This document shows positions 2,924 to 33,803 of a DNA stretch of 46,356 bases, piece after piece (within the stretch, counting starts at the first letter, position 1; each line of letters starts with the position of its first letter). Location of the stretch: assembly GCA_015491615.1 (NCBI GenBank), contig WFVN01000288.1:1-46356 (forward strand), read 5' to 3'. Source of the DNA: Gammaproteobacteria bacterium. Its GTDB lineage: Bacteria; Pseudomonadota; Gammaproteobacteria; S012-40. The notes beneath the pieces were generated by a model. The model saw only the letters and a list, made by a program, of their open reading frames with translations, searched no databases and had not been told where the DNA came from. A program made the translations under genes and the position numbers.

Positions 2924-3140
2924 ACTTGGCGCGATAGACGATGCGTCCCTTGGTGAGATCGTAGGGCGTGAGCTGAACGACCACCCGGTCCCCCGTCAGG
3001 ATGCGGATGTAATGTTTACGCATCTTCCCAGAAATGTGGGCAGTGACCACGTGGCCGTTGTCCAATTTCACTCTGAACATGGTGTTGGGAAGGGTCTCGA
3101 TGACCGTCCCTTCCATTTCGATACTTTCTTCCTTCGCCAT
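2922..3140 (-). CDS. infA: translation initiation factor IF-1
   Basis: 72-aa product [72 protein letters not shown]. Internal ATG at 3140 of track ORF 2922..3446; the upstream extension is not IF-1-like. Confidence 0.95.
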
Positions 3141-3306
3141 GGATATCGCTCCAAATCTGTACCGAATACGACTCGATGAGCGCGGATTATACGTTTTCCC
3201 CCCGCCATTTCCTAGCGAGGCAATCAGGTGGGAATTATCCGGCGTCTTCACATCCTTTCCGCTATAATAGGCGCCCCAGATCGCTGGATTGTGGACGGTA
3301 GAATCC

Positions 3307-3606
3307 ATGGAGCTCGACAAGAACGAAGTCATCGTCATCAAAGGTGTCACCAGAGACGGCCGACGCTTTCGCCCCAGCGACTGGGCGCAGCGCCTCTCTA
3401 CCGCTGCAGCAGCCATGGTACCCGCCCCGCCGCAAGCCGCACGCAAGGCAAGACGTCCGTTTCACCCCAAGGTCAACACCGCCATCATCGACGGGATCAA
3501 CAGCGTCGTGGTGGAAAAATCCTTGGCTGAAGAAGATCAGCGCCTATACAAATTTTTGATCAACTTCGCAAAGGAAAACGACCTACTGATCGAAGGCCTG
3601 GATTGA
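3307..3606 (+). CDS. DUF3579-family protein
   Basis: [10 protein letters not shown] and [12 protein letters not shown] match the two conserved blocks I recall for DUF3579. I chose the ATG at 3307 over the TTG at 3289 used by the track. A TATAAT hexamer lies at 3263-3268. Confidence 0.75.
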
Positions 3607-3648
3607 CGGAATTTTCCTGCATTTCCTCGATCATGCCTCCAAGGAGGA

Positions 3649-4125
3649 TCAACGCCTTTCCGCCTTGTCCTCTCCTTCGTCGCTCCAATTCTTGATAAAA
3701 AACTTCAACATCTTGTTTTCGTAACTGATCTCGTCCAGCAGGGCATGCACCAAATCACTCATGGAGATCATGCCGCAGATGGTGCCGTCTCCGTCCACGA
3801 CCGGTAGATGGCGGATTCGCTGACTAGTGGGATTCTCCAGCATCAGCGCCATGGCCTCTTGCAGCTCCACCTCGCCCGGGCAGGTGACCAGACGTCTGCT
3901 CATGACCGAAGCGACGGACACCTCGGTGACCGCCGCCCCATGTTCACCCAAGGCCTTCAACACGTCACGTTCGGTGACGATACCGATGGGTCGGTCGCCC
4001 TCGAACACGAACAGCGCACCCGTGCCGGCCTCGGCCATACGTTTGGCCGCCTCATGCAAGGTCGACTGCGGGACGATGCCGACGATTTCTCGACCCTTCT
4101 TATCCAGCACGTCGATGATGCGCAT
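3649..4125 (-). CDS. CBS-domain pair protein
   Basis: 158 aa with two CBS repeats (IVTERDVLKAL ... ; MISMSDLVHALL). Confidence 0.85.
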   Translation of the reverse strand: MRIIDVLDKKGREIVGIVPQSTLHEAAKRMAEAGTGALFVFEGDRPIGIVTERDVLKALGEHGAAVTEVSVASVMSRRLVTCPGEVELQEAMALMLENPTSQRIRHLPVVDGDGTICGMISMSDLVHALLDEISYENKMLKFFIKNWSDEGEDKAERR

Positions 4126-4154
4126 GATAAACTCCCCCTGGAAAATCCATCGCG

Positions 4155-4532
4155 TTGCTCCATATTAACATGATTATCGCCTTGATCGATCTTTTGTTCA
4201 TATTGTTCATGTCTTTGATTTATATAGACATTCCTCCGCTTATCGTGGGATTGTCCGTGCGTGGCCTCGATTTCATCCTGGAGCCGATGAACGCGTTTCT
4301 GGCCATGTCGACAGGGCAGGTGGTCTACCTCACTGTGATGTGGTTACGGCGACGGCGACACGGCTACAACGTGCCTCTATTTCTTTCTGCCATGGGGGCA
4401 GGAGGTGTGTTTCTCGGTATCTTCGTCTCGCCGCCACTGGTGATGGCGGGAACGGTGGTGCAAATCGTCGCTTGGGTGCTGGATGCAAAGACCCAAGAGT
4501 CCACTATGGAAAAGGGGGTCAAAGCACGATAA
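4155..4532 (+). CDS. hypothetical small integral membrane protein (start uncertain)
   Basis: 125-aa ORF with 3-4 hydrophobic helices and no recognisable family. The 5' part is visibly A/T-rich. Only 29 nt from the divergent CBS gene, so a downstream start is possible. Confidence 0.45.
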   Translation: MLHINMIIALIDLLFILFMSLIYIDIPPLIVGLSVRGLDFILEPMNAFLAMSTGQVVYLTVMWLRRRRHGYNVPLFLSAMGAGGVFLGIFVSPPLVMAGTVVQIVAWVLDAKTQESTMEKGVKAR

Positions 4533-4590
4533 TATTTTTCCGTCCATCACAACCAACCATCCATCAACCACGAACAAAGGGGGACCTACC

Positions 4591-4695
4591 ATGCCGAGAC
4601 CCGACGACGGTACGGAAGTACAGGGCATCTTGTGGATTGTGTTCACCATTCTCTACGCCGCCTTGGCCATTTTCGTCCTGGCCAACGCGGCATGA
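4591..4695 (+). CDS. candidate 34-aa single-TM mini-protein
   Basis: ATG at 4591 preceded by AAGGGGGA. Product MPRPDDGTEVQGILWIVFTILYAALAIFVLANAA. The stop is embedded in a 17-bp hairpin. Confidence 0.4.
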   Translation: MPRPDDGTEVQGILWIVFTILYAALAIFVLANAA

Positions 4696-4737
4696 CGCAA
4701 AGAAACCCCGGGATGTCCCGCCGGGGTTTCTTTGCGT
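4695..4737. terminator. perfect 17-bp inverted repeat (hairpin, no clear U tract)
   Basis: ACGCAAAGAAACCCCGG (4695-4711) pairs perfectly with CCGGGGTTTCTTTGCGT (4721-4737), with a 9-nt loop. Confidence 0.55.
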
Positions 4738-4835
4738 TACATCCACTTTACATAATATACATTATGCGAAATTACGTGTCCTGCGGCCGATCGATCGTCT
4801 TGATGATGATGCGCCCCCTTCTTCCCGGGGGCCAT

Positions 4836-4872
4836 GCAAAAAGCCGAGGGTTGGGCGCCCTCGGCTTTTTGC
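4836..4872. terminator. bidirectional intrinsic terminator downstream of pnp
   Basis: GCAAAAAGCCGAGGG / CCCTCGGCTTTTTGC, 15-bp arms and 7-nt loop. The A and T runs give a U tract on either strand. It lies 22 nt past the pnp stop. Confidence 0.8.
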
Positions 4873-12684: not shown

Positions 12685-13140
12685 TCACCATTCGGGCACC
12701 AGATTCGCCTTCTCCACCCGGTTCAGAGGCAGCGAGACCGTCTCGCCGTCCACCGCCAGGTGCAGTATCCCCTCTTCGGCGCCGACGATGACGCCGACGA
12801 AATTCTTTCTTCCCTCCAGCGGCTCGACCAAGCGTACCTTGCACCGCTGGCCCGCAAAACGCTGGAAATGGGCCGGCTTGAACAATGGTCGGTCCAGGCC
12901 GGGCGAGGACACCTCCAGGTTGTACTCGCCGGGGATGGGGTCCTCCACGTCCAGCAGGGCACTCACTTCGCGGCTCACCGCCTCGCAATCCTCAATGGTG
13001 ATGCCATCGGGATGGTCGATGTAGAGACGCAACACGGAGTGCCGTCCCTGAGGTAAATATTCCACCCCCAGGAGTTCGTATCCGAGGTCCTCGACCGCAG
13101 GAGCCAGGAGCGTTTCCAATCGACTGTTCTTGTTTGCCAT
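12685..13140 (-). CDS. rimP: ribosome maturation factor RimP
   Basis: 151 aa from the internal ATG at 13140 ([29 protein letters not shown] ... [14 protein letters not shown] ... KANLVPEW). This aligns end to end with RimP as I recall it. The GTG extension to 13218 in the track is not RimP-like. Confidence 0.9.
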
Positions 13141-13165
13141 AAACAAAAAATGGGCCACGGGCCCA
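13141..13165 (-). terminator. terminator-like hairpin T2 abutting the rimP start codon
   Basis: Minus strand: TGGGCC-cgt-GGCCCA followed by TTTTTTGTTT, then the rimP ATG. There is no Shine-Dalgarno in between. Confidence 0.45.
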
Positions 13166-13251
13166 CTCTCGACATGGACGAGGGCCGACCACCCTCTTCC
13201 GTCTTCAACCTCCCCCACCGTGGTGCGGGGGGCATGGGCGCCGTCCGTAAT

Positions 13252-13499: not shown

Positions 13500-15419
13500 T
13501 CATCTTATCTTCCCCTGCCCCGCTTCCGGGACGAGACAGGCACGAATCTCGTCGGCCAGCAGGGTCTCTTTCTCTTCCAGACGCCGCACCAGTTCCAGAT
13601 AGGACTCGCGGTGTGCCTGCAATACCGACTCGGCACGCGTTTCGGCTTCCCGCAACAAACGTTGTACGGCCTTATCCACCGCTGCAGCGGCCAATTCGCT
13701 GTAACGCCGGGGTTGGGCCATCTCCTTGCCCAAGAAGGGATGCTCGTCGCTCTCACGCAGGTCCACCGGGCCGATGCGCTCGTCCATGCCCCAGCGGGAC
13801 ACCATGGCCCGCGCCAAACGTGTGGCCTGGCGGATGTCGTCGTCGGCCCCGGAACTTACGCTGCCCAGGAACAGGCGTTCCGCTGCCCGTCCGCCCAGCA
13901 TCACCGCCAGGCGGTCACGCAGGTACTCCTCGGGCAGGGTGTGTCGCTCCACTTCGGGGAGCTGCTGGGTCACCCCCAGGGCCTGACCGCGGGGGATGAT
14001 GGTCACCTTGTACACCGGATCGGCGTGGGGCAGATAGAAACCCACTGCCGTGTGTCCGCCCTCGTGGACGGCGAGACGATGACGCTCGTCCTCCTGGAGG
14101 ACCAGGTGGCGTTCCACCCCCATGATCACTTTATCCTTGGCCTGGTCGAGATGACGCATGGTGATTTCCGCACGCCGCTCGCGTGCGGCGAGAATGGCGG
14201 CCTCGTTCACCAGGTTCCTCAGATCGGCGCCGGAAAAACCTGGCGTGCCGCGGGCGATGATGGCCAGATCCACGTCCCCGGCCAAGGGTTTGTTGCGCGT
14301 GTGCACCCGCAAGATGGCCTCGCGGTCCTTCACGTCGGGTAGATCCAAGGTCACGTGCCGATCGAAGCGCCCGGGTCGCAACAGGGCGGGGTCCAGCACG
14401 TCCGGCCGATTGGTGGCGGCGACGACGATCACTGCTTCGCGACCGGTGAAGCCGTCCATCTCCGCCAGGATCTGATTGAGGGTCTGCTCCCGTTCGTCGT
14501 GCCCGCCGCCCAGGCCGGTACCGCGTGTGCGGCCCACGGCGTCAATCTCGTCGACGAAGATGATGGATGGAGCACTCTTCTTGGCCTGCTCGAACAGATT
14601 GCGTACCCGGGCCGCCCCCACCCCCACGAACACTTCGATGAATTCCGATGCCGACATGGAAAAGAAAGGGACACCGGCTTCCCCCGCCAAGGCCTTGGCC
14701 AAGAGGGTCTTACCGGTACCAGGGGGTCCCATGAGAAGCACGCCCTTGGGCACTTCCGCCCCCAGCTGGCGAAAGGCCTCCGGGTGCCTGAGGTAGTCCA
14801 CCAGCTCACGCACCTCACGCTTGGCCGTTTCCTGCCCAGCTACGTCGGAGAACTTCACATGGGGCACTTCCGCCGGACCGGAAATGGGCTGGAGGAACTT
14901 CTTCAGGTCTCCACCCCCGGGCGGGCCGCCACCGATGTTGCGGTAAGCACGTCCCATGAGCCACAGCCAGATGACCAGAATGAGGATCCAGGGCAGCCAA
15001 GCGATGAGAATGGTGCGCCAGTCGGTCTCCTGGGAAAGGGCTCGTACGGTCACGTCTCGATCGCGCAAGATCCCCAGAAGGGGTTGAGCCTCCAGGGGCG
15101 GCACCCGGCTTGCAAGGCGCGCACTTTCCTCTCCTTGCGGTCCCAAGGGTTCGGGAAATTTCAGCCGAGCCTCCAGGTCAGCGCCGCGGAAGGTGACCTC
15201 ACTTACCTTACCCGCTTCCAACAGGGCTTCGAAACGACTGAATGGCACCTCGAAGATGGGCTCACCCTGCGTTGGAGCGTAGTACACCCCAAGGAAAGAT
15301 ATGAGCACCAAGAAGATGAGGAACCAAGGCAACCAAGGAGGGGAGTCACCACCGGTCGAGTCGGGCCGGTCTTTCCTTCGGGGATCACGATGGGGCGGCT
15401 TAGAGGGTGGCGTGCTCAT
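13500..15419 (-). CDS. FtsH-type ATP-dependent zinc metalloprotease, probably an extra paralogue
   Basis: Two TM helices flank a ~100-aa periplasmic segment. AAA module [13 protein letters not shown] / [10 protein letters not shown], zinc site HEGGH. ATG at 15419 (MSTPPSK...) preferred over the 15500 start in the track. It is not in the usual ftsH context. Confidence 0.9.
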
Positions 15420-15675
15420 GCATTCGTTCCGCTTCCCGATACCGCCCTTCCGTAAAGGGCGCGGCCCGCACGATAGGACTGTAACGCCACGCTCGGCCAC
15501 CCATTTCCTAACCTGTGGTGGCTATTTTACCCATGCATGGCGTGCACTCGCCCGCCCGAGCTTCCTTGGGGACGAACTTCCCCTCGGGGCACGGGGGGAT
15601 GCCCCCTGAACCGGAATTCGACGTATCGAAAAAGCCGCGGAGCCCCAAGACCCAATTCGTCATGCGCCCTCAACG

Positions 15676-15700
15676 AAGGACCCCGCATCGCGGGGTCCTT
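15676..15700 (-). terminator. stable hairpin just downstream of the protoglobin gene (no U tract)
   Basis: AAGGACCCCG / CGGGGTCCTT arms (10-11 bp) with a 3-5 nt loop, 8 nt past the stop at 15708. Confidence 0.4.
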
Positions 15701-15707
15701 GGGAGAC

Positions 15708-16304
15708 TCAAGCGGTGGCTTTCTCCGCTGGTTGAAACTCCTCGAGCATGCGTTTGATCTGCAGGTCTTTGATACGATTGAGCAGCGCCGGATTGATGCC
15801 CACCTTGGCCAGACCTTCGCGAGTGCTCGATTCCAATACCTCGTCGTAGCACTCTGCAATGAGGGTGGCGATGATGCCGCTCACCCGCAGGAAGGCACCC
15901 GCCAGAACCTGGGCCTTTTCCGGCTCGAATTCGGCGAAACATTTCTGGACGAAGATCTGCTGGACATGGTTCATCATCCCCAGCATGTACAGGTTGCGCG
16001 TCTTTCGCTTGATGTGCATGAGGGCGATGTACCACTGGTAACGCCAGTAGTCCTCGTCCTTGCGCCCGGTGAGCATTTGCTCGTACCAACGGGCGAGGGT
16101 CCGCTCCAGTTTGGGGCGTTCACCCTCCTCCACTACCGAGGCCGCCTCCGGACAAGACAAGAGACGATCGTAGAACTGCTGGACGATCTCCGGCCCCCAC
16201 TGCCGTAGATGCTCCGCTTCCGCCTGCAGCACGTCCCAGTCTTCCGGACGGTAGCCGGTCAGTTCGCTCGCGGTTTTGACGTAGTCTCCGACCAGGGTCA
16301 TCAC
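15708..16304 (-). CDS. single-domain sensor globin (protoglobin / globin-coupled-sensor type)
   Basis: 198 aa. IVQQFYDRLLSCPEAASVV ... LERTLARWYEQMLTG ... YIALMHIKRKTRNLYMLGMMNHV parallels the HemAT-type pattern IV..FY..L ... H.RIGL.P.WY, with His in ALMHIKR as the likely proximal ligand. GTG start overlaps the Roadblock stop by 4 nt. Confidence 0.8.
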   Translation of the reverse strand: MMTLVGDYVKTASELTGYRPEDWDVLQAEAEHLRQWGPEIVQQFYDRLLSCPEAASVVEEGERPKLERTLARWYEQMLTGRKDEDYWRYQWYIALMHIKRKTRNLYMLGMMNHVQQIFVQKCFAEFEPEKAQVLAGAFLRVSGIIATLIAECYDEVLESSTREGLAKVGINPALLNRIKDLQIKRMLEEFQPAEKATA

Positions 16305-16684
16305 ATAGCCTCGATGACTTCGTTGAGATGCTTGCGGATGGCGTAACGAACACCGCCAATGACCGCGGTCTGATCGGTGACGATGGCCAGGATGTCGTCT
16401 TTCACCGTCGCCATGATGACCTTGCCGCGCTCGAATTCGGCCAGGTACTGCTCCATCAAACCAAGGGAAAATTCAGCCCCCAGGCTTTCGGTGGTACCGA
16501 TGGCGGTGGCCACCATGGCCCCCAGGGCATCCATGTCCACGGCGGTGGTGGAAGTCCCCTCGATGACGAAACCGTCACGGCCGATGATGGCGGCGGCGAT
16601 GACCCCCTTGATGGTGAGAAACTCGCTCAGCACTTCGTTGAGGCTGTTGCTCTGCGGATTGGCGGTGGTGATGGTCGCGACCAT
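16301..16684 (-). CDS. Roadblock/LC7 (MglB-like) domain protein
   Basis: 127 aa. IKGVIAAAIIGRDGFVIEG ... DMDALGAMVATAIG ... ILAIVTD is the typical Roadblock/LC7 pattern. AGGAGGA Shine-Dalgarno. Confidence 0.85.
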   Translation of the reverse strand: MVATITTANPQSNSLNEVLSEFLTIKGVIAAAIIGRDGFVIEGTSTTAVDMDALGAMVATAIGTTESLGAEFSLGLMEQYLAEFERGKVIMATVKDDILAIVTDQTAVIGGVRYAIRKHLNEVIEAM

Positions 16685-16748
16685 GATGTTCTCCTCCTAA
16701 TCGTTATAGTGTGTGATGCTCGATTTCCCGTGGCGGGGGACCTGGGAT

Positions 16749-17705
16749 TCAGGAAGCGCGCCCCTCCACCACGCGTTGGACCCAAGTCATGACGCCGTCT
16801 CGATCCTTCGGCGTCGTGAGGAACCCCACCTGTTCCCTCAGGTGGGGATATTGCCCGACGATACCTTTCAGGGTATCCGCCAGGAGCAATTCGCCATGCA
16901 CGACGGGAGCGACCCTGAGGAGATGTTCCATCAGGACCACTTCGGCACGCAAGCCGGCGTCCACCTCCATTTGCAACCAAGCCCCTTCCCAGCGAGGGAG
17001 ACGTTCCACCGCCTCACTCCAACCTTTGCCGGCGACGTCCATGCAGACCAGATAGGAAACATGGTTGCGATCGTGGACCGCTCGTACCAACAAAGTGGTG
17101 GCGACCTCCACCACAGGGGCGCCGAACCACTGCCCGACTGCTTGCAGCCGATCCTTTTCCATGAGAGTAAGATAACGGTGCTGGGCCGTCACTTGCTGCG
17201 CCTTGTCGAGGAAGGAGAACAGGCGCTCCACAGGTAGGGCGCGCGCCGTGATCGAGGTGATCCCCGGGTGGTGGTTGGGGAGCGCATGAGCACGCCGTTC
17301 ACCCGCGAGGGCGTGGTCGAGCACAGCACGCGCTTCTCGCAATGCCGCGCGCGGATTGCCGAAATTCAAACGGCAACGAGCCCTTTCCAGGCCCCGCATA
17401 ATACGGGGATCGTCGTTGTCCCATTGCCGGGCGGTGTGTATGAAGTCTTCGAGGAGCCCACGGATTTCCGCTGCTCGAGATTCGTACTGACGGTCTATGC
17501 GCTCGAAGATGGAGGCAGCTCGGGCAAGGCGCTCTTTGGCCTTCTCGCGCCCGTTGCGGACGGCTCCATCAAGGAGCCCGCTTAACCTAGAAAATTCATC
17601 AGGAAAATAGAAATCGGCGCCGAGGCGCAGATTCGCCTGATAACGAAGAACTAAACCGACCGGGTCAGTAAGCTTCTGTTCATCTAATTTTGGATGTGCG
17701 GACAT
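16749..17705 (-). CDS. hypothetical protein (318 aa from ATG 17705), first gene of the Roadblock-protoglobin operon
   Basis: Long ORF in coding-like composition. Helical N-terminal half, alpha/beta-looking C-terminal half. No Walker A or other motif I recognise. 64 nt upstream of the Roadblock gene on the same strand. Confidence 0.6.
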   Translation of the reverse strand: MSAHPKLDEQKLTDPVGLVLRYQANLRLGADFYFPDEFSRLSGLLDGAVRNGREKAKERLARAASIFERIDRQYESRAAEIRGLLEDFIHTARQWDNDDPRIMRGLERARCRLNFGNPRAALREARAVLDHALAGERRAHALPNHHPGITSITARALPVERLFSFLDKAQQVTAQHRYLTLMEKDRLQAVGQWFGAPVVEVATTLLVRAVHDRNHVSYLVCMDVAGKGWSEAVERLPRWEGAWLQMEVDAGLRAEVVLMEHLLRVAPVVHGELLLADTLKGIVGQYPHLREQVGFLTTPKDRDGVMTWVQRVVEGRAS

Positions 17706-17863
17706 GGGGTGTCGCCTTTCCCAGGAACGTGGTCGATGTTTTACACTGACCACCCGGCCTGCGTGCTACTATATCCCACTCACGCAAGAATACAACTCTG
17801 TCAATTCCTCGATCGCCCGATTCGACCGAGCCACCTTCTTCACGAAGAAAACATATTGAGAAA

Positions 17864-20062
17864 ATGTATTTAAACCATTTCTCCCTTGCTCGCGCACCCT
17901 TCGACTTCCTGCTGGAACCCGATCTCACCTACTGGAGTCCGGGTCTGAAGGCACTCTGGACGGAAGTGACCCGAGGCCTCGGCAATGGTCGCAGCCCCCA
18001 GTTCGTCGTCGCCCGACCCGGATGCGGGAAGTCGTTCTTCCTCCACTTGCTCGCCCTGCACAGCATCGAACAGGGACATAACTGCGCCTACATCGACGTC
18101 GCTGGCCAGCGCGCCGACCTGTTTGAATCGCTCTCCCTCGCCTACGGGCTGGAATACCCTTCCCAGAGTGAGGAACAGTATCTCACATGGTTCGAGAGCT
18201 TCCTCGCCTCGTCACGCCTCGGGGGCATCCAGAACGTCCTGTTGCTGGACAACGTCCACCGCATGGACTCCCAGGCTCTACAGAAACTGGTCTATTTGAT
18301 CAAGATCCGTATCGACAATACCCCTTTGCTCCACGTGGTGGCGACCCTCAGTGAAAAGGAAGACCAAGAAGCCTTGGAGTTGCTCACCGCCAACCAGGTC
18401 TCCGCGAAGCCACTCCTCCTCCCCCCCCTGGACGTGGCGCACACGGGTGCCTACATCACCCACCGCCTCAAAGCCGCCGGACACGACAACGGAGACCTTT
18501 TCGACGATGACGTGGTGGAGTGGCTCCATGCGCGCTCGCGCGGCATTCCCCGCGAGATCAATTATTACGCCGACTTGTTCATGACGCATGCCTACCTGCG
18601 GCACCAGCGACGGATCCATACCCGACTCGTTCAATTGGTGGATCCCACCGACAACACCCGCAAGCCGAAGGAGACCCACCCCGGGATCGTCGTCGAACGA
18701 CCGAAGCCGTCCACCTCCCCCCGCGGGGGTACGAGCGAAACCATAGGAGGCAAGACGACGCCCGATGAGGGCATCGCCACGGTGAAGTCGTCTCCGCCCC
18801 GCCCCACCCACGAAAGGCAAAAATCGGGGGGAACGGCCGAGCCATCCCGAGCGACCGAACCGACAGTGGCCGACGAGCCCAGATCTTCGTCCAAGGCCAA
18901 GTCCACCAGAGGGCGACCCGAAGTAGGGAAAGGCAACCCACGACACACGGACGAAGGCAAAGGCACGCGAACGACGAACGACACGAAACAACCCTCGCCG
19001 CCTCCCCCTACGGCCGAGAGCCCTGTTTCTTCCACCTCCCGACCGGAAAATGAAGCACCGGCCGCCAATCGCCGAGGTTTGTTCCTCGCCGCAGCCGCTC
19101 TCGTCATGCTGGTCTTGGCCGGCCTCGTTCTGTTGCAGAGCGACGAAACCAGAGACGTCCCCCCTCCGCAGGCGGTAGCGGAAACTTCTCCAGGAGAACG
19201 TCCCAATACCCCCATCCCGGTAACCCGTACGCCGCCCGCCCAACCTGAGGGACGGTCCGAAACCGAAACCGGGGGACAACCCCCCAGCCGCGTGGCCAAG
19301 CAAGAGGTGACGACCCAACCGGTGGAACAACCGGTCAAGACAGCGCCAACTTCACCTGCTGCCCCCCGAACGCGGACGGATGAGAAACCAACTCCTCCCG
19401 TAGCGACTCCTGCACCCGAGACGAAACCGCGCATTGAAGAGCCGAGGAAACCAGCAACCCTCGTCGCCAAGGCTGAGCCGCCCCTCGAAACCGCCGCGGC
19501 GCCCCCGGGAGAAACGGTGTCGTCTCCTCCACCCTCGCCCCGTCTTTCCGAAGCCGCGAAAGAGCGCGATTCACAAATACCAGCGGCGCCCGTCGCCGAT
19601 AGCGAGACAGAAGTCGCTCCGGAGGGACACACGCCTACGGAAACGGACTCCGAATTCGCCAGTTTCGTCCCTGCGCCCGATGGCCAGGATCCGTTGCTGG
19701 CCGTGCAGGCCTTGGACAACCTCGTCCACCGTTTCCAATGGGCTTACGAAAATGCCGACGAACACGTCCTTGCAGAGATTTTCGACCCCAACATTCGCAC
19801 CAACGAAAACAGCGGTCGCGACGCCATCCTCAACGAATACGGCCAGTTCTTCCGCGTCACCCAAACCCGTCGCTTGGCAATCGGTCCCCTCGAATGGCAG
19901 ACTTCCGGTATGGTTTCCACCGGGGTGGGACGCTTTACCGCCCATGTAGTGACCAAGAGGGGCAAGGAACGCACCTTCACCGGCACGTTGACCATCGAAG
20001 CCATCGCCACCCCCGCGGGCCGTCCCAAGATCACGGCCCTTTACTACCGATACGATAGCTGA
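17864..20062 (+). CDS. ExeA/GspA/MshM-like AAA ATPase fused to a long Pro-rich linker, one TM helix and an NTF2-like C-terminal domain
   Basis: N-terminus MYLNHFSLARAPFDFLLEPDLTYW ... RPGCGKS ... VLLLDNVHRM ... SRGIPREINYYAD follows the ExeA pattern (MYxxHFGLxxxPF; GxGKT; DEAQ; GxPRxIN). Then ~130 aa of P/S/T/K/R-rich sequence, TM GLFLAAAALVMLVLAGLVLL (nt ~19076-19135), ~170 aa P/E/T/A-rich, and a ~120-aa globular tail. Confidence 0.8.
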   Translation: MYLNHFSLARAPFDFLLEPDLTYWSPGLKALWTEVTRGLGNGRSPQFVVARPGCGKSFFLHLLALHSIEQGHNCAYIDVAGQRADLFESLSLAYGLEYPSQSEEQYLTWFESFLASSRLGGIQNVLLLDNVHRMDSQALQKLVYLIKIRIDNTPLLHVVATLSEKEDQEALELLTANQVSAKPLLLPPLDVAHTGAYITHRLKAAGHDNGDLFDDDVVEWLHARSRGIPREINYYADLFMTHAYLRHQRRIHTRLVQLVDPTDNTRKPKETHPGIVVERPKPSTSPRGGTSETIGGKTTPDEGIATVKSSPPRPTHERQKSGGTAEPSRATEPTVADEPRSSSKAKSTRGRPEVGKGNPRHTDEGKGTRTTNDTKQPSPPPPTAESPVSSTSRPENEAPAANRRGLFLAAAALVMLVLAGLVLLQSDETRDVPPPQAVAETSPGERPNTPIPVTRTPPAQPEGRSETETGGQPPSRVAKQEVTTQPVEQPVKTAPTSPAAPRTRTDEKPTPPVATPAPETKPRIEEPRKPATLVAKAEPPLETAAAPPGETVSSPPPSPRLSEAAKERDSQIPAAPVADSETEVAPEGHTPTETDSEFASFVPAPDGQDPLLAVQALDNLVHRFQWAYENADEHVLAEIFDPNIRTNENSGRDAILNEYGQFFRVTQTRRLAIGPLEWQTSGMVSTGVGRFTAHVVTKRGKERTFTGTLTIEAIATPAGRPKITALYYRYDS

Positions 20063-20067
20063 AGACC

Positions 20068-21276
20068 ATGCGTCTCTTCGCCCTCACGCTACTGCTGATC
20101 TTTTCCTCCCTCACTCATGCAAAAGAACCCCTGCGTCTCGCGGTGCTCGGCATGCCGTTGGATGAGCTGGAGGCGGAAATCGAAACGCCGCCAGCCCCCG
20201 CGCCGCAGCCTTCTCCACGGGCGCCGATCGCCCCTCCACCACCCGCTGTTCCAGCCCCTGCGGAGATCCAGCCTGCCGTTCCAGTGGTCGAAGACGACAG
20301 CGGTGACGCCGCCACTCCCTCACCTTCCGCTAGCGAGGCGGCATCGGCTGTCGCCCCCCAACCCTCTCCTCCCCCTGGTGACATGGCCTTGTTCCGAATT
20401 CTGAACGAGCGACGCCACGACTTTTATCCTTCCACTTTGGCCCTGCCCGTCTATGGCAACCAACAACGCTTGGATCCCGATCTGTGCTTGGCCCTGGCCT
20501 GGAACATGGACGCACGCTGGCAATCACGTCTGTGTTACACGGCCCTGTATGGAGAACTTGAGGAGCGCGATCGACGGAGTGGTGCCATGCTGGGTCGATT
20601 CAGCACCCAATGGGCAGACGGCCAACTGGACCTCGTCGATTACGTCCATGCCTTCGACGACGACTTCATGATCAGTGTCGGCTGGGTGGTCTCGCGCTAT
20701 CTCCTCGATTTCGACCGCACCGGTCAGTACACCGAGCTGGGCGGCATCCGTTACGATAGCCAGAGCACCCTCGCCGCCCTCACCAGCGGTCTACAGGTGG
20801 GCACCTATTTGCGAACCGCCGAAGGCTCCGTGCTGCGGGCGCGGGTGAGTCTCGAACCCTTTGGGCGCTACGATCTGAATCAGGCCTTCTTCGTGGGTAA
20901 CGACCTCTCCGCCAGCAATCGGCAGAGCGGCTCCAATATCGGCACCGTCGTTTCCCTTAGCTTTTCCGCTACGCGCAGAATCGCCTCCCGCCTGGAAGGA
21001 ACGGCAGAGGTGCGCTATCGCCATCTGCCTTACGCTTACGACACTCTCATGACGGCCCAGGTGGGCACCGATAAGATCCAGTTGGAAGATCGCTTCTCGG
21101 GCAGCGACACCCTCCTTCGCACGGGATTTCGTCTCGGAATTGAAGTGCCCTGGGCGAGCGTCTCTCCTTATGTGGAGACGAGCCTGTTCTATACCAGCCA
21201 TAAGGACGAGGCGGACAAGGAATATCTTTACTACAGCGGTTACCGCTTTTACCTGGGAGTCTCGAAGATTTTTTGA
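20068..21276 (+). CDS. putative outer-membrane beta-barrel protein with Pro/Ala-rich N-terminal region
   Basis: Signal peptide MRLFALTLLLIFSSLTHA. ~90 aa P/A-rich segment, then ~280 aa of alternating amphipathic strands ending YRFYLGVSKIF (C-terminal Phe beta-signal). Starts 5 nt after the ExeA-like stop. Confidence 0.7.
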   Translation: MRLFALTLLLIFSSLTHAKEPLRLAVLGMPLDELEAEIETPPAPAPQPSPRAPIAPPPPAVPAPAEIQPAVPVVEDDSGDAATPSPSASEAASAVAPQPSPPPGDMALFRILNERRHDFYPSTLALPVYGNQQRLDPDLCLALAWNMDARWQSRLCYTALYGELEERDRRSGAMLGRFSTQWADGQLDLVDYVHAFDDDFMISVGWVVSRYLLDFDRTGQYTELGGIRYDSQSTLAALTSGLQVGTYLRTAEGSVLRARVSLEPFGRYDLNQAFFVGNDLSASNRQSGSNIGTVVSLSFSATRRIASRLEGTAEVRYRHLPYAYDTLMTAQVGTDKIQLEDRFSGSDTLLRTGFRLGIEVPWASVSPYVETSLFYTSHKDEADKEYLYYSGYRFYLGVSKIF

Positions 21277-21296
21277 AGGGGGAGGGGTAGGAAACG

Positions 21297-21324
21297 AAAA
21301 AAGCGCCCGCAAAGGCGCTTTTTT
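21297..21324. terminator. bidirectional intrinsic terminator (serves the OMP gene and the tRNA)
   Basis: AAAAAA-GCGCC-cgcaaa-GGCGC-TTTTTT. Confidence 0.8.
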
Positions 21325-21329
21325 GAAGA

Positions 21330-21406
<77 letters not shown>

Positions 21407-21491
21407 TCAGGATGGCCATATCCTAAACCAAAACGCTTTTGACATGCAAGCATCAATCCGGCCCGTCATATACATCGCCCAGGAGGCCCCT

Positions 21492-21791
21492 ATGTGGTAC
21501 ATGATCTTCGCCCAAGACCATCCGCATTCCCTGGAGAAACGCAAGGCCGCGCGCCCCGACCATCTGCGCCGCCTGGAAGCCCTGCGTGAGGAAGGGCGCC
21601 TTCTGCTGGCCGGTCCCTTGCCGGCGGTGGACAGCGAGGACCCTGGTCCAGCCGGTTTCACCGGCAGCCTGGTGGTGGCCGATTTCGAATCCCTGGAAGC
21701 GGCCCGGACATGGGCGGAGACGGATCCTTACAAGGCCGCCGGGGTCTATGCCCAGGTGGAGGTCTACCCTTTCAAGAAGGTCCTGCCATGA
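21492..21791 (+). CDS. YciI-family protein
   Basis: 99 aa from ATG 21492 (AGGAGG 6 nt upstream): [31 protein letters not shown] ... DPYKAAGVY. Confidence 0.88.
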
Positions 21792-22953: not shown

Positions 22954-28520
<5,567 letters not shown>

Positions 28521-28574
28521 GGAATCCAGCGAGTGGGTTAAAATGACGGGCTAAGCTAGCACAGGGAAAAATTC

Positions 28575-28964
28575 ATGCCTACCCGACCCAGCAAGGACCT
28601 CGAAACCTTCGACAACCCCCATCCGGAGCGGGATTACACCATCCGCATCCGTATCCCCGAATTCACTTGCCTGTGCCCGAAGACGGGCCAGCCGGACTTC
28701 GCCACCCTGCATCTGGAGTACGTGCCCGACCGGCGCTGCGTGGAGCTCAAGTCCCTGAAGCTGTACATCTGGTCTTACCGGGACGAGGGCGCCTTCCACG
28801 AAGCGGTGACCAATCAGATCCTGAACGATCTGGTGGCCGCCACCGCGCCCCGTTTCATGCGCCTCACCGCCGAGTTCAACGTGCGCGGCGGCATCTACAC
28901 CACCGTGGTGGCCGAGCACCGCGCCCCCGATTGGCAACCCGCGCCGCCGGTCAGTCTCCCCTGA
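28575..28964 (+). CDS. queF: NADPH-dependent 7-cyano-7-deazaguanine reductase (unimodular QueF)
   Basis: 129 aa. Catalytic-Cys segment [15 protein letters not shown] and QueF motif [13 protein letters not shown]. Confidence 0.95.
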
Positions 28965-30271
28965 TGACCGACGCCTCGTTCCTGGGCATCGACGTGGGCA
29001 CCTCCGGCGTGCGCGCCGCCCTCGTCGATGCCTCGGGGAATCTGGCGCATCTGGGCCGCGCGCCCCTGCCCCCTTCGCGTCGGGACGGGGCCGGGCATGC
29101 CTTCCAGGACGCACCCGGCTGGTGGCGTGCCCTGGTGGCGGCGGTGACGACTCTCCCTGAACCGGCCCGCCAGCGGGTCACCGCCATCGGGCTGGACGCC
29201 ACCTCGGGAACGGTGCTGGCGGTGGATGAGCGGGGTGAACCTTTGGGCCCGGCGCGCATGTACGACGACCGCGCCGCCACGGCCACCGCCGAGCGCATCG
29301 CCCAGGTCGCCCCGCCCGAATCCGGCGCCCACGGGGCCGGCTCGGGCCTGGCCAAGGCCCTGGAACTCCTACAGGCGCACCCCCGCGCGCGCATCCTCAC
29401 CCAGGCCGATTGGCTCCTGGAACGTTTGGGCGCCTCGGGCGTCAGCGACGAGAACAACGCCCTCAAGCTGGGTTACGACCCCGTCGCGCGCTATTGGCCC
29501 GAGTGGCTGAGAACACTGGCCCCCAACCTCCCCCTGCCTGAGGTCCTACCGCCGGGAGCGCCAGCCGGGCGCCTGTCCCCGGAAGCCGCCCGCACCCTGG
29601 GCCTGCCCGCAGGTGCTCTCCTGGCCGCCGCCACCACCGACAGCGTCGCCGCCACCCTCGCTGCCGGCATTGAGGGGCTGGGCGAGGGCGTCACCGCCCT
29701 GGGCACCACCCTGGCACTGAAACTGGCCGGCACGCGGCCGGTGTTCGACCCGGCCCGGGGTATCTACAGCCATCGCCTGGGGGAAGTCTGGTTGGCCGCC
29801 GGGGCCTCCAACTCGGGCGGCGCGGTGCTGGCCCGGTTCTTCACCCCGGAGCGCCTGCGGGCCTTGTCCGAGCATATCGATCCGGACCAAGACTCCGGCC
29901 TGGACTACTACCCCCTCCCCGCTCCCGGTGAGCGCTTTCCCGTCGCCGATTCCCAGTGCCCACCGCGCCTGGAACCGCGCCCCGCCGACGACGTGCGCTT
30001 TCTGCACGGCCTTTTGGAGGGCATCGCCCGCATCGAGGCCGAGGGCTACCGCCTGCTGGCCGAACGAGCCGGCACCCGCCTGCGGCGCGTGTGGACCACC
30101 GGCGGCGGGGCATCCAACCCCACCTGGACCGCCCTGCGCCGACGTCTGCTGCAAGTGCCCGTGGCCCCGGCGGCGCAACAGGAAGCGGCGGTGGGCGCCG
30201 CCCGCCTGGCCCGCTGCGCCGTCACCGGCGAGCCTCCCCTCACCCTCCAGCCCACCGAGGCTAACCCATGA
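28964..30271 (+). CDS. FGGY-family carbohydrate kinase
   Basis: 435 aa from the ATG overlapping the queF stop (TGATG). N-terminal FLGIDVGTSGVRAALVD, C-terminal TTGGGASNPTW, typical of FGGY kinases. The longer track ORF from 28667 overlaps queF out of frame. Confidence 0.8.
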   Translation: MTDASFLGIDVGTSGVRAALVDASGNLAHLGRAPLPPSRRDGAGHAFQDAPGWWRALVAAVTTLPEPARQRVTAIGLDATSGTVLAVDERGEPLGPARMYDDRAATATAERIAQVAPPESGAHGAGSGLAKALELLQAHPRARILTQADWLLERLGASGVSDENNALKLGYDPVARYWPEWLRTLAPNLPLPEVLPPGAPAGRLSPEAARTLGLPAGALLAAATTDSVAATLAAGIEGLGEGVTALGTTLALKLAGTRPVFDPARGIYSHRLGEVWLAAGASNSGGAVLARFFTPERLRALSEHIDPDQDSGLDYYPLPAPGERFPVADSQCPPRLEPRPADDVRFLHGLLEGIARIEAEGYRLLAERAGTRLRRVWTTGGGASNPTWTALRRRLLQVPVAPAAQQEAAVGAARLARCAVTGEPPLTLQPTEANP

Positions 30272-31014
30272 AAGACAACCCCCTCACCGGCGCCGCCTAT
30301 CTCCTCAAGGGCTTCGCCCTCATCCGTACCCCCGGCCTGCGCCGCTACGTGGCCCTCCCCCTGGCCATCAACGTGGCTCTGTTCGCCATCCTCGGTTGGC
30401 TGGGTATCACCTGGCTGGGGGGCTTCCTGGACGAACAGATCCAGCGCCTGCCGGAATGGCTGCAATGGATCGAATGGCTGGTCTGGCCCCTGTTGGGGTT
30501 GGCCTTCCTGGTCATCGGCTTCACCCTGTTCACCTTCCTTGCCGGGATCATCGCTGCCCCCTTCAACGCCTTGCTCGCCGAGACCATCTTGCGCCGCGCC
30601 GGCGCCCTGTCCGATGAGCCCCCCGAGCGCCCCTGGCACGCGGCCCTGGCCGAGGCGGGGGTGGCGGTGCGCGAGGAACTGCGCAAGCTGGCCTATTTCC
30701 TCAAGTGGGCCTTCCCCTTCGGCATCGCCTTCTTTATCCCCGGGGTGAACCTGCTGGCCTCGCCCCTGTGGCTGGCGTTCAACGCCTGGATCCTGGCCCA
30801 GGAATATTTGGACTACCCCTACAGCGCCCAGGGCATCCCCTTTTCCCAACAACGCCCATACCTGCGTCGTCACCGGGGCCTGGTACTGGGCTTCGGCGGC
30901 GTCACCCAGGTGGCCACCGCCGTTCCCCTGGTCAATCTCCTGGTCATCCCCAGCGCCGTCGCCGGGGCCTGCCTGTTGTGGCTGGAACGTCTGCGCGACG
31001 ACGTCCCCCATTGA
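30268..31014 (+). CDS. cysZ: sulfate transporter CysZ
   Basis: 248 aa, multi-TM. AAPFNALLAE and PGVNLLASPLWLAFNAWILAQEYLDYP match CysZ blocks. The ATG overlaps the kinase stop (ATGA). Confidence 0.85.
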   Translation: MKDNPLTGAAYLLKGFALIRTPGLRRYVALPLAINVALFAILGWLGITWLGGFLDEQIQRLPEWLQWIEWLVWPLLGLAFLVIGFTLFTFLAGIIAAPFNALLAETILRRAGALSDEPPERPWHAALAEAGVAVREELRKLAYFLKWAFPFGIAFFIPGVNLLASPLWLAFNAWILAQEYLDYPYSAQGIPFSQQRPYLRRHRGLVLGFGGVTQVATAVPLVNLLVIPSAVAGACLLWLERLRDDVPH

Positions 31015-31160: not shown

Positions 31161-33803
31161 ATGACTCGACCAAAACTGAAACCCCTCGCCCTCGCCCTGG
31201 CCCTCGCCGGTATCACCGCCCTCTCCGGCTGTTCCAACTCGGACGGCGAGGACATCATCTACGGCAGCCTGCTCAAGGGCCCCGTGGATGGAGCCACCAT
31301 CGAGATCGTCGATGCCGAGGGCAACCGTATCGCCTCCGGGGTGAGCAAGAACGGCATCTTCGCCGTGCGCCACGAAGGCATGGCGCAAACGGAGCTGGTG
31401 TACATCCGCGCCCGCGGCGGCAGCTACGTGGACGAGGCCACGGGGGAGACAGTGGACCTGGGCGATGCGGTGATGGAAACGGTCTTCACCGCCGAGGAAT
31501 GTCTGCAGCTCCTGGAGAACGGCGAGTATGCCGCCCTCACTCCCGAGACCACCCTCCTCGCCCGCCTGGTGCGCGAGAAAGTGGCGGCCGGCGAGGCGCC
31601 CGTCCAGGCCCTGCAGAGTGCCATCGACCTGGTGGAGCAGGAATGGATCGCCGACACCAATCCCACCGGCGGCCTCGTCTCCGGCGATACCCTCGTCCGC
31701 AAGGGCAATCTCGTGCAGGCCCTGGCCGACTCCCCGCAACAGGCCCTGGCCAAGAACCGGGCGATGAGCCTCTCCTATCTGGCCCAGGACCTGAATCTCG
31801 ACCCGAAGGACGTCCTTACACTGGTGGAAAAGGCCGCCGAAGACCTCACGGATGGCACCCTGGAGGGCAAGGCCGGCAACCAGGATCTTTCCCTGCCAGC
31901 CGCCGACGGCACCTCCGTCCCCCTCGCCGGCGTACGCGACCGCTACGCCAGCGCCCGCCAGACCCTGTTCCAGAACACCATGCAGCGCCTGGCGGAAGGG
32001 AATCTGAGCGACGCCGAACGGCAGCGCCTGGCGGGTATGATCGCCGATCGCCAGGGTGCCCAGGCCCTGCTTGCGCAACTGGACCGCCTCGCCCAGCAGC
32101 GCCAGGATGCCGAGGCCAAGGTCCAGGCCCTCCTCGCCGACGACGATCTCGTCGATTTGCCCCTGCCCACCCCCCTGAGCGACGAAGACGGCAATTCTAG
32201 CGACAACGCCGCCACCTACTCCCTCACCGTCCAGAAAGACGTGCCCGTCATCGTGTCACTGCGCCACAACGACGCCCCCCTGGATGTGACCGTGAACATG
32301 CTGCGTTACAACGGCGGCCAGCTCCCGCCCCTCATCACCGCCCGCCGCGGCGATACGGTGACGGTGAACATCGACAACCAGCTCGCCGAGGAGACCACCA
32401 TCCACTGGCACGGCTTCCGTATCCCCGCCGACGTGGATGGTGGCCCGGACAACCCCATCGCCGCGGGCGGGAGTTTCAGCCCGACCCTGAATCTGGACCA
32501 GCCCGCCGCCTCCCTGTGGTTCCACCCCCATCCCCACAGCAAGACCGGGCAGCAGGTGTACAACGGCCTGGCGGGCATCTTCATCCTCGAGGATGATCTC
32601 AGCATCCAGCTCCAGACCGACAATCAGCTCCCCGGCTACCCCTACGACATCCCCCTGTTGATCCAGGACCGCCGCTTCAAGGATACCGACGGCAACGGCA
32701 CCCCGGACACCATGGTCTATGCCGAGAGCCCGCGCGACATCGCCATGGGCATGCTCGGCGACCGCATCCTCGTCAATGGTGTGGAGGCGCCCAAACTGTC
32801 GGTGGAGACGCGCCAGTACCGCCTGCGCCTGTACAACGTCTCCAACGCCCGCACCTACGACTTCGCCTTCTCGGACGGGCGCACTTTCAAGGTCGTGGGG
32901 ACCGACGGCGGCCTGCTGCCACAACCGGTTGAAGTCGATCACCTGATGCTGGCACCGGCCGAGCGGGCGGAGATCGTCGTCGATTTCCGTAGCGACGCCG
33001 TGAACGACAAGGTCGTGCTCATCAGCCGCGCCTTCCTGGGCGCGCAGATGGGCATGATGGCCGGCGCCATGGGCGGCAGCGGTATGGACGGCATGTCGGG
33101 AACGGGTGGCATGGGAAGCATGGGCGGAATGTCCGGGATGGGCGGCATGAACGGCATGGATGGCGGTGGCATGGGCAGCGGCATGGACATGATGGGCACC
33201 CTCCCCAACGGCGCCGCCTTCCCCATCATGCGCTTCGACGTCACTACCCAGGCCCAGGACCCGGTCATCCTCTACACCGCCCTGCCGACCACGGCCGACA
33301 TCAACACCCGTTGGGCGAACGACGTCACCGATACCACCACCCGCCGTCCCTTCGTCATGGCCATGGGCAACATGGGCAAGATGACCGGCATGGGCCAGAA
33401 CGGTGATCTGGCCGCCGGCATGGGCTTCACCATCAACGGCAAGACCTTCGACATGACCGGAGATCCAGACGAAACCATCATCCTCAACGGCCAGGAGATC
33501 ACCGAGGTGTGGGAGATCACCAACCACTCCATGATGCCCCACCCCTTCCACGCCCACGCCATCCAGTACCAGATCCTGGACCGCAACGGGCGCGAGCCCT
33601 CCTGCGCGGACACCAGCACCGAGGCGGGTCAGGCCGCCTGCATCGACATGGGCTGGAAGGACACTGTGCTGGTGCGTCCCGGGGAGACGGTACGCCTGGT
33701 GGGTCGCTTCACCCCGGTGGTCAACGAAGGCAAATACATGTACCACTGCCACATCCTCGAGCACGAGGACAATGGCATGATGGGCGTGTTCGAAGTGAAG
33801 TAA
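31161..33803 (+). CDS. lipoprotein multicopper oxidase (CueO-like core) with ~350-aa N-terminal extension and Met/Gly-rich insert
   Basis: Lipobox ALSGC. Copper ligand motifs HWHGF, WFHPHPH, HPFHAHA, HCHILEHEDNGMM. 880 aa is much longer than a typical three-domain bacterial laccase. Confidence 0.9.
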   Translation: MTRPKLKPLALALALAGITALSGCSNSDGEDIIYGSLLKGPVDGATIEIVDAEGNRIASGVSKNGIFAVRHEGMAQTELVYIRARGGSYVDEATGETVDLGDAVMETVFTAEECLQLLENGEYAALTPETTLLARLVREKVAAGEAPVQALQSAIDLVEQEWIADTNPTGGLVSGDTLVRKGNLVQALADSPQQALAKNRAMSLSYLAQDLNLDPKDVLTLVEKAAEDLTDGTLEGKAGNQDLSLPAADGTSVPLAGVRDRYASARQTLFQNTMQRLAEGNLSDAERQRLAGMIADRQGAQALLAQLDRLAQQRQDAEAKVQALLADDDLVDLPLPTPLSDEDGNSSDNAATYSLTVQKDVPVIVSLRHNDAPLDVTVNMLRYNGGQLPPLITARRGDTVTVNIDNQLAEETTIHWHGFRIPADVDGGPDNPIAAGGSFSPTLNLDQPAASLWFHPHPHSKTGQQVYNGLAGIFILEDDLSIQLQTDNQLPGYPYDIPLLIQDRRFKDTDGNGTPDTMVYAESPRDIAMGMLGDRILVNGVEAPKLSVETRQYRLRLYNVSNARTYDFAFSDGRTFKVVGTDGGLLPQPVEVDHLMLAPAERAEIVVDFRSDAVNDKVVLISRAFLGAQMGMMAGAMGGSGMDGMSGTGGMGSMGGMSGMGGMNGMDGGGMGSGMDMMGTLPNGAAFPIMRFDVTTQAQDPVILYTALPTTADINTRWANDVTDTTTRRPFVMAMGNMGKMTGMGQNGDLAAGMGFTINGKTFDMTGDPDETIILNGQEITEVWEITNHSMMPHPFHAHAIQYQILDRNGREPSCADTSTEAGQAACIDMGWKDTVLVRPGETVRLVGRFTPVVNEGKYMYHCHILEHEDNGMMGVFEVK
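33039..33197 (+). repeat. coding low-complexity Met/Gly repeat inside the multicopper oxidase
   Basis: GAQMGMMAGAMGGSGMDGMSGTGGMGSMGGMSGMGGMNGMDGGGMGSGMDMMG, encoded by reiterated GGCATG-type units. Confidence 0.8.

Follow-up and report, generated by a model that had tools for sequence, protein, structure and literature searches.

The known outputs of globin-coupled sensors are fused domains of the kinase, cyclase or chemoreceptor type. Output through Roadblock has so far been described for a globin in one uncharacterised fusion only, from one genus: HGbRL of Methylacidiphilum infernorum, a protein that unites a globin and a Roadblock/LC7 domain (PMC4476040). The globin of HGbRL is HGbI-like and not of the protoglobin type, the fusion was reported as unique to its genus within the Verrucomicrobia, and no ExeA-like ATPase, barrel or G-domain-like partner is described in its neighbourhood (PMC4476040). 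Roadblock proteins themselves are established partners of NTPases and have the classical fold of an NTPase regulator (PMC4476040), and for the ATPase ExeA a role in secretin assembly is established (PMC4098917). Here we describe a divergent cluster of five genes in which parts of these kinds stand side by side, at positions 15708-21276 of a 46,356-nt stretch of DNA (contig WFVN01000288.1 of assembly GCA_015491615.1); the whole stretch is called the window, and coordinates refer to it. Literature searches on protoglobin with Roadblock, on ExeA with Roadblock and on Tlr1989 found nothing relevant apart from the HGbRL paper (PMC4476040).

An earlier note on this DNA had listed five open reading frames in two divergent operons, encoding a haem sensor, a Roadblock protein, an orphan, an inner-membrane AAA ATPase and an outer-membrane barrel, and could name no characterised pathway for them. 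All five are present at the positions given, the parts list is correct, and no Pfam, NCBIfam or PADLOC model assigns the set to a described system. The combination, judged from sequence, is undescribed and built from known kinds of parts; it comes from uncultured genomes only, and its function is inferred. Our preferred reading, to which we give a probability of a little over 40%, is a split haem sensor-switch module wired to a trans-envelope output. Its distribution was surveyed by searching species-representative genomes with a Roadblock profile and then running hidden Markov model (HMM) and BLAST searches over the returned loci, which carry the prefix L below. The genes and the spacer between the operons are as follows.

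15708-16301, minus strand: globin of the protoglobin/globin-coupled-sensor type, 197 amino acids from ATG (Pfam Protoglobin, E = 7.8e-16)
16301-16684, minus strand: Roadblock/LC7 protein, 127 amino acids (Robl_LC7, E = 2.2e-13)
16749-17705, minus strand: family-less protein, 318 amino acids from ATG, with an N-terminal helical bundle (residues 9-140) and a C-terminal alpha/beta domain (residues 150-314)
17706-17863, both strands: divergent intergenic control region, 158 nt, 51.3% GC
17864-20062, plus strand: ATPase, 732 amino acids (AAA_22, E = 2.2e-9; 38.2 bits against a cutoff of 27)
20068-21276, plus strand: predicted outer-membrane beta-barrel protein, 402 amino acids, with a signal peptide (residues 1-18), a barrel from about residue 120 and a C-terminal Phe

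Globin, Roadblock protein and a probable, family-less partner

The protoglobin fold of the sensor is detectable by profile (Pfam PF11563, 58.9 bits against a cutoff of 25), and its best solved relative is the globin of AfGcHK (PDB 5ohe, E = 2.7e-8). The Tyr of an FYDR motif and the His of an ALMH motif align with Tyr45 (B10) and the proximal His99 (F8) of AfGcHK, and F43, Y44 and H96 are invariant in nine gammaproteobacterial orthologues. The protein resembles globin-coupled sensors and sensor single-domain globins, which are of the same protoglobin type and share Tyr(B10) and His(F8), and it keeps both putative haem-ligating residues. Conservation in the nine orthologues extends to a C-terminal tail of about 40 amino acids with the pattern VG.N.AL..R.K, and identity within the window's clade is 84-98%. 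Because its 197 amino acids contain one Pfam domain only, with no fused transmitter (kinase, GGDEF, methyl-accepting chemotaxis protein or similar), its sequence places it among the single-domain sensor globins and not among the classical globin-coupled sensors. Unlike in AfGcHK-type sensors, the putative transmitter is the product of a separate, coupled gene, that of the Roadblock protein.

The stop codon of the Roadblock gene overlaps the globin start by 1 nt (ATGA). This overlap holds throughout the clade loci (L001, L005, L007, L010 and L011), and through it the globin gene is predicted to be translationally coupled to the Roadblock gene. HGbRL likewise joins a haem globin to Roadblock/LC7, there in one fused protein and here in two genes. 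The best solved relative of the Roadblock protein is an Asgard Roadblock (7yh1_D, E = 2e-9), followed by weaker matches to CvnB5 (3leq) and MglB; with 20.8 bits against a cutoff of 200 for the MglB equivalog NF052242, it is not an MglB orthologue. Its identity reaches 91-99% in genomes whose RimP is 74-76% identical. In a comparison where RimP is 74-76% and LigA 84% identical, the values are 91-92% for the Roadblock protein, 84-87% for the globin, 44-45% for the 318-amino-acid protein, 44% for the ATPase and 47-56% for the barrel protein. By this measure, the Roadblock protein and the globin are more constrained than the housekeeping protein RimP.

The 318-amino-acid protein, for which we used the same ATG start as public gene calls, has no match in Pfam or NCBIfam, and a sequence search of the PDB with it gave nothing significant. 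Its homologues form only 8 clusters in a database of 5.8 billion proteins, and when 1.84 billion representatives were searched exhaustively with a profile for distant relatives, only its own 2 clusters came back. The best of five AlphaFold2 (AF2) models has a mean predicted local distance difference test (pLDDT) score of 83.8; the other four score 41-54. All 50 listed Foldseek matches of the best model are G domains of P-loop GTPases or chains that contain such domains, among them Arl6, EngB, Arf, Rab and EF-Tu, with Arl6 (4v0l) first at E = 5.5e-4 and a template modelling (TM) score of 0.54. Neither GxxxxGK[ST] nor NKxD occurs in any of 7 homologues, and the loop after strand 1 lacks the P-loop motif. 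The model suggests that the protein probably partners the Roadblock protein and has a G-domain-like fold without a P-loop. Because the Walker A motif (GxxxxGK[ST]) is missing, it cannot be a conventional GTPase, and it would be expected to bind no nucleotide. The earlier note had called the protein an orphan; the modelled fold gives it a probable place beside the Roadblock protein.

A Roadblock gene that neighbours the gene for a protein of Ras-like G-domain fold is also found in MglA/MglB of Myxococcus and Thermus and in the Streptomyces conservon CvnA-D. The present locus differs from MglAB in that the G-like protein lacks intact G1 and G4 motifs and the Roadblock protein falls below the MglB equivalog cutoff, and from the conservon in having no CvnA kinase, no DUF742 protein and no CvnD GTPase.

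Roadblock genes of this subfamily occur in other settings in more distant genomes. The closest archaeal Roadblock proteins (41-47% identity) have a PilB-like T2SSE ATPase of about 758 amino acids encoded 1-2 kb downstream in 57 Methanomicrobiales loci; in this group (L030-L092, for example L030:9998-13361), the Roadblock gene is followed by one for a second Roadblock-domain protein, and the proximity of Roadblock and secretion ATPase genes is strongly conserved. In Fibrobacterota (L024-L027 and L029, for example L027:7065-10762), genes for two unknown proteins of about 469 and 361 amino acids without a Pfam match precede three Roadblock/LC7 genes in a row. By analogy, the archaeal loci would support a Roadblock protein that acts on an envelope NTPase, and HGbRL would support communication between globin and Roadblock.

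ExeA-like ATPase and outer-membrane barrel protein

On the plus strand, the ATPase is divided into three conserved parts.

17864-18643, plus strand: cytoplasmic ExeA/GspA-like AAA_22 domain, residues 1-260, with Walker A GCGKS at residues 53-57 and Walker B LLLDN
19076-19135, plus strand: single transmembrane helix, residues 405-424, preceded by RR and conserved in 7 homologues; predicted N-in, C-out
19655-20062, plus strand: periplasmic C-terminal domain, residues 598-732, 68-93% identical in the clade and 26% identical to that of L014

The linkers on both sides of the helix are rich in P, A, E and K and are not conserved; the first is disordered, and the periplasmic one is about 170 amino acids long. 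AAA+ proteins with an intact Walker A motif and an altered Walker B Glu generally keep ATP bound and are impaired in hydrolysis. In this ATPase, the Walker B residue N130 is invariant in 7 homologues. The position after the Walker B Asp gives DN throughout the clade, DD in L014 and DE in four of five ExeA-like relatives; a SPOR-domain relative, P0025, also has DN. Because Walker A is intact and Walker B reads DN, the N domain should bind ATP and hydrolyse it poorly, which would fit a switch or scaffold better than a motor.

In the C-terminal domain, no PG_binding, LysM or SPOR match was obtained even at E values up to 10, and PDB sequence searches with the ATPase and with this domain alone gave nothing significant. 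Sub-threshold matches to SnoaL_4 (E = 0.011) and to the N-terminal domain of PBP5/PBP2a and a de novo NTF2 protein (E = 0.1-0.8) point to a domain that is probably NTF2-like.

It could be argued that the protein is an ordinary orthologue of GspA/ExeA (or MshM) that serves a secretin of a type II secretion system or type IV pilus encoded elsewhere, and that the barrel and the sensor are incidental. The AAA_22 domain in its N-terminal part is consistent with this, as are its topology, which is that of ExeA (N-in, one helix, periplasmic C domain), the nearest relatives outside the clade, which bear the name general secretion pathway protein A or contain a PG_binding_1, LysM or SPOR domain, and the established role of ExeA that was cited above. 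Like ExeA/GspA with ExeB and like the ATPase of TIGR03015, it is also paired with a gene for an outer-membrane protein. Yet the protein shares no more than 24-29% identity with ExeA-like proteins, across 35% of the length, PF01471, LysM and SPOR are absent with a putative NTF2-like domain in place of the peptidoglycan-binding one, and Walker B reads DN, not DE. No GspB/ExeB or secretin is encoded in the cluster, with only part of the 46-kb window scanned for them, and the downstream gene encodes a barrel of about 12 strands without a Secretin match. We consider an ordinary ExeA orthologue highly improbable. TIGR03015, the XrtA/PEP-CTERM-associated ATPase, is the best named model for the protein and was rejected, its score of 90.8 bits being far below the cutoff of 324.5, which likewise speaks against ExeA orthology.

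The barrel gene starts 5 nt past the ATPase stop codon, and the gap is 2-5 nt in all clade loci. Only 7 homologues of its product were found, all on contigs that carry the rest of the cluster. The mature protein begins with an invariant peptide, E-x-LRLAVLGMPL-xx-L (residues 20-34), which is separated from the barrel by a non-conserved, Pro-rich linker of about 70 amino acids. There is no Pfam match, no NCBIfam match at E values up to 0.1 and no Secretin match. In the AF2 model, which is all-beta, about 12 long strands run antiparallel (pLDDT 70-88 over residues 190-370, mean 60), and Foldseek returns outer-membrane barrels only, including BamF-like proteins, Pla/OmpT, FadL/TodX and autotransporter beta-domains. 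The best E value is 8.6e-6; because the TM scores are low (0.3-0.45), no specific barrel family is assigned. With moderate confidence, drawn in part from the model, the 402-amino-acid protein matches the generic description of an outer-membrane barrel: a signal peptide, amphipathic strands and a terminal aromatic residue. Two invariant cysteines (residues 140 and 156; 20485-20535; DPDLC...RWQSRLCY) precede the predicted first long strands, and this pair could form a conserved disulfide.

Taken together, these parts suggest how a haem signal could reach the envelope. If the haem bound O2, NO or CO, or underwent a redox change, the complex of globin and Roadblock protein would be altered, and the altered Roadblock dimer would then engage the 318-amino-acid protein differently. 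This P-loop-less, G-like protein could serve as a nucleotide-independent adaptor that acts on the ExeA-like AAA_22 domain and shifts its nucleotide state or its oligomeric state. From there, the change would travel along the membrane helix and the Pro-rich arm to the NTF2-like end domain, which may dock on the tethered N-terminal peptide of the barrel, much as TonB docks on a TonB box; the outcome would be control of barrel assembly or gating. The likeness to TonB-ExbBD and TonB-dependent transporters concerns mechanism only (an anchor in the inner membrane, a Pro-rich periplasmic linker, a small end domain and a barrel with a short, invariant N-terminal peptide). In contrast to TonB, the locus has no TonB_C, Plug or ExbB/D match and has a cytoplasmic AAA+ domain in place of a motor driven by the proton-motive force, and the interaction itself is hypothetical. 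It seems unlikely to us that the locus represents a new class of split haem sensor, in effect an outer-membrane channel or assembly device gated by a gas or by redox state, one that runs from globin through Roadblock, pseudo-GTPase and ExeA-like switch to TonB-like docking under a single bidirectional promoter.

Putative shared control region and linkage of the two operons

The spacer between the operons had been described as comparatively A/T-rich, and at 51.3% GC against 63.8% for the window it ranks among the lowest 2.5% of all windows of 158 nt. The A/T-richness was said to extend into both first genes; it does so in the 318-amino-acid protein gene (49% GC in the first 150 nt) but hardly in the ATPase gene (59%). 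Two features lie within the spacer.

17758-17777, both strands: 20-nt block CCTGCGTG[C/T]TACTATATCCC, invariant in 5 aligned genomes, with the rest of the spacer diverging
17791-17796, minus strand: candidate -35 element TTGTAT of the minus-strand operon, with a 16-nt spacer; the TTGT part is invariant in the alignment

Each of 14 clade loci contains the core of the block a single time, in every case within the spacer, and the full 20-nt block is unique in the window, with 0 occurrences expected by chance. On the plus strand, it contains a putative extended -10 element, TGnTACTAT (17764-17772), and on the minus strand a putative -10 element, TATAGT (17773-17768), which is offset by 1 nt from the plus-strand hexamer, so that the hexamers are base-paired to one another at positions 2 and 6. 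The same geometry has been published for bidirectional promoters of bacteria, whose start sites are separated by 18 bp (10.1101/2020.01.31.928960). A single symmetric, bidirectional promoter core at 17767-17773 may drive both operons. The candidate -35 element matches the consensus at 3 of 6 positions and was not called by a sigma-70 scan.

The five genes are intact and in the same order in every relative found, down to 44% identity, and this is also true of L007, which has a different flank past the tRNA. Variable genes, for an FtsH-family protease, an Endo_dU nuclease and a 1000-amino-acid cytochrome c-like protein, insert beside the block and never within it, and all relatives of the 318-amino-acid protein and the barrel protein are on the same contigs as the block. 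A scan of metagenomes with a profile of the ATPase C-terminal domain returned 3 loci, all from the same clade. Outside the clade, L014, from a metagenome-assembled genome (MAG) of the Chromatiales, is the only one of the scanned loci with an ATPase homologue. Its Roadblock protein is 67% identical and is encoded next to priA, a context different from that of the window. Its 711-amino-acid ATPase is homologous in the N domain (E = 3e-12) and in the C domain (E = 3e-10, ending in FYRY), and the ATPase gene is divergent from an unknown 367-amino-acid gene followed by the Roadblock gene, arranged as in the window. Overall, the C-terminal domain of this ATPase subfamily was found only next to Roadblock modules.

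The Roadblock-globin pair is more widespread. It is present in L015-L023, about nine lineages of MAGs labelled Gammaproteobacteria (some Chromatiaceae or Ectothiorhodospiraceae), with Roadblock proteins 54-65% identical and globins at E values of 1e-51 to 1e-72. Directly upstream of the Roadblock gene, seven loci (L014-L019 and L021) encode an unknown protein of 310-404 amino acids. Some motifs of this family and of the 318-amino-acid protein are collinear by eye, and no homology is claimed: BLAST found nothing, and an HMM comparison gave 4.9 bits.

These distributions bear on the main rival reading, which we consider only somewhat less probable than our own, namely that the cluster comprises two independent neighbouring units, a cytoplasmic signalling unit of globin, Roadblock and a third protein and an ExeA-like ATPase/barrel pair for envelope biogenesis, with their adjacency merely inherited. 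The target of the sensor would then be distant, for example in polarity, motility, exopolysaccharide synthesis or proteolysis. Such independence is favoured by the pairs in L015-L023, which lack ATPase and barrel and have variable neighbours (BcsAB, M1- or M6-like peptidases, priA, ferrochelatase), by the synteny of the whole tRNA-fMet to rimP region within the clade, and by the far slower evolution of the sensor genes compared with the envelope genes. It is at odds with the recurrence of the divergent ATPase/Roadblock arrangement in L014 in another context, with an ATPase subfamily never seen away from a Roadblock module, with insertions that border the five-gene block but in no case interrupt it, and with the 20-nt block, whose overlapping -10 elements imply shared transcriptional control.

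Several observations weigh against a sensor-switch module wired to the envelope. Recurrence outside the clade is a single contig, that of L014, which has no barrel gene and ends before any globin. In L016, L019, L021 and L023, flanks of 3.5-10 kb on each side of the pair contain no ATPase or barrel homologue, so the link to ATPase and barrel is not obligate. Synteny within the clade takes in housekeeping flanks too and is weak evidence alone, and in an hhalign comparison of the 318-amino-acid protein with the upstream family (P about 0.2), 6 of 60 column shuffles scored equally. Because the sigma-70 scan called no promoter in 15400-21500, the promoter proposal rests on conservation and symmetry and not on consensus strength, and the invariant block could instead be an operator for a transcription factor. 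Only one of the five AF2 models of the 318-amino-acid protein is confident, with modest Foldseek scores (E about 1e-3, TM about 0.5); the NTF2-like assignment of the ATPase C domain is below threshold; docking of that domain on the barrel peptide is pure inference; and the mechanism is proposed from sequence and models.

The independent occurrence of the two operons, which had been named beforehand as grounds for rejecting their connection, was thus found in part, as the Roadblock-globin pair stands alone in other gammaproteobacterial lineages. The connection itself had been drawn from divergence only. It now also has the intact block, the shared 20-nt block and the recurrence in L014 on its side, but the sensor pair exists elsewhere without ATPase or barrel. 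Of the modules, the sensor core is the more widespread and is under the stronger constraint. The ATPase, joined by the barrel in this clade, would be an output added to that core in two or more lineages, and the two envelope genes seem to be one such output, specific to their lineage.

With a Roadblock-globin core in about ten uncultured gammaproteobacterial lineages, our findings suggest that switching through Roadblock and an NTPase is a recurrent bacterial way of reading out haem ligands. The locus offers a concrete candidate effector, the ExeA-like ATPase with its outer-membrane barrel. It also points to a family of P-loop-less, G-domain-like proteins, to a branch of the ExeA family without peptidoglycan binding and, through the PilB-like ATPases of Methanomicrobiales, to a cross-domain tie of this Roadblock subfamily to envelope ATPases.

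Two loci have further genes near the sensor pair. In L016 (2454-8467, minus strand), a fused BcsA-BcsB cellulose synthase with PilZ (1497 amino acids) is encoded beside a 368-amino-acid protein with a C-terminal Roadblock domain, and the two genes are divergent from the module of unknown gene, Roadblock and globin; exopolysaccharide is a possible alternative output of the module. In L020, a ferrochelatase gene (3854-4855, plus strand) is located a few genes downstream of the Roadblock-globin pair. Ferrochelatase carries out the last step of haem synthesis.

Genomic setting and neighbouring genes

In many Gammaproteobacteria, tRNA-fMet and rimP are contiguous (the metY-rimP-nusA-infB operon). 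The cluster had been placed in a block that interrupts this unit, and the block is indeed flanked by a tRNA-Met gene (21330-21406, minus strand) and by rimP (12685-13218, minus strand). The tRNA is of the initiator type by sequence, since it starts with CGCGGGG and has a GGG/CCC anticodon stem; it was the sole Rfam match at the locus, and no known RNA element is involved.

From this position, the earlier note had taken the cluster to be of accessory origin, a view that did not hold up. A horizontally acquired island at tRNA-fMet, selfish or of a defence type, would explain why the block separates tRNA-fMet from rimP, why the families of the 318-amino-acid protein and the barrel protein are extremely narrow and why variable genes gather on the rimP side. 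However, the block has neither an integrase gene nor att-like direct repeats derived from the tRNA 3' end, the GC content of the block (59-65%) is like that of the rest of the window, PADLOC gave no meaningful match, and the Roadblock protein and globin are under stronger constraint than RimP. Every clade member, even at protein identities as low as 44%, has the block at the same tRNA-fMet site, and the block is therefore old and vertically inherited. We give an accessory island almost no credence. As for anti-phage defence, the only PADLOC match, rejected as marginal, was to mad8 (E = 0.0034) in the P-loop region of the ATPase. The locus is not a bona fide ExeA, TIGR03015, MglAB, conservon or defence system and is not demonstrably mobile.

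Two hairpins bound the cluster.

15676-15700, minus strand: GC-rich 11-bp hairpin, present in the minimum free energy and centroid folds of 15565-15710 (minus strand)
21297-21324, both strands: putative bidirectional intrinsic terminator in the gap between the barrel and tRNA-fMet genes, with an 11-12-bp stem between an A-run and a U-run

The first directly follows the globin stop codon, with no U-tract behind it, and probably marks the 3' end of the minus-strand operon, where it may act as a terminator. The second, missed by the terminator scan, has a z-score of -4.6 on the minus strand and a symmetric order of A-run, stem and T-run; situated between the convergent barrel and tRNA-fMet genes, it could terminate transcription in both directions.

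On its other side, the cluster borders on a gene for an FtsH-family protease (about 13500-15500, minus strand), which is located between the globin gene and rimP. With TIGR01241 the protein scores 725 bits, above the cutoff of 600, and it fails the E. coli-type equivalog NF008004 (568 against 1008). The gene is at this site in the window lineage and in L005 and is absent there in L007, L010 and L011. It could be a paralogue, or else a variable addition to the cluster. In relatives, a gene for a 1000-amino-acid protein with weak cytochrome c matches (L005:14805-17807, L007:9163-12183) and one for an Endo_dU nuclease (L005:12035-12610) occur between the cluster and rimP. The rimP side of the cluster is a hotspot of gene gain and loss.

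Farther away, the window has two marked shifts in composition relative to its mean of 64% GC, at 25500-30500 and at 3000-4500. In the GC-high shift, values of 71-75% extend over an SMC gene and an FGGY-kinase-like gene; in the GC-low shift, values are 54-56%, with a minimum of about 42% near 4080. Finally, the plus-strand gene at 31161-33803 encodes an 880-amino-acid protein in which three multicopper-oxidase domains follow about 370 residues without a Pfam match.

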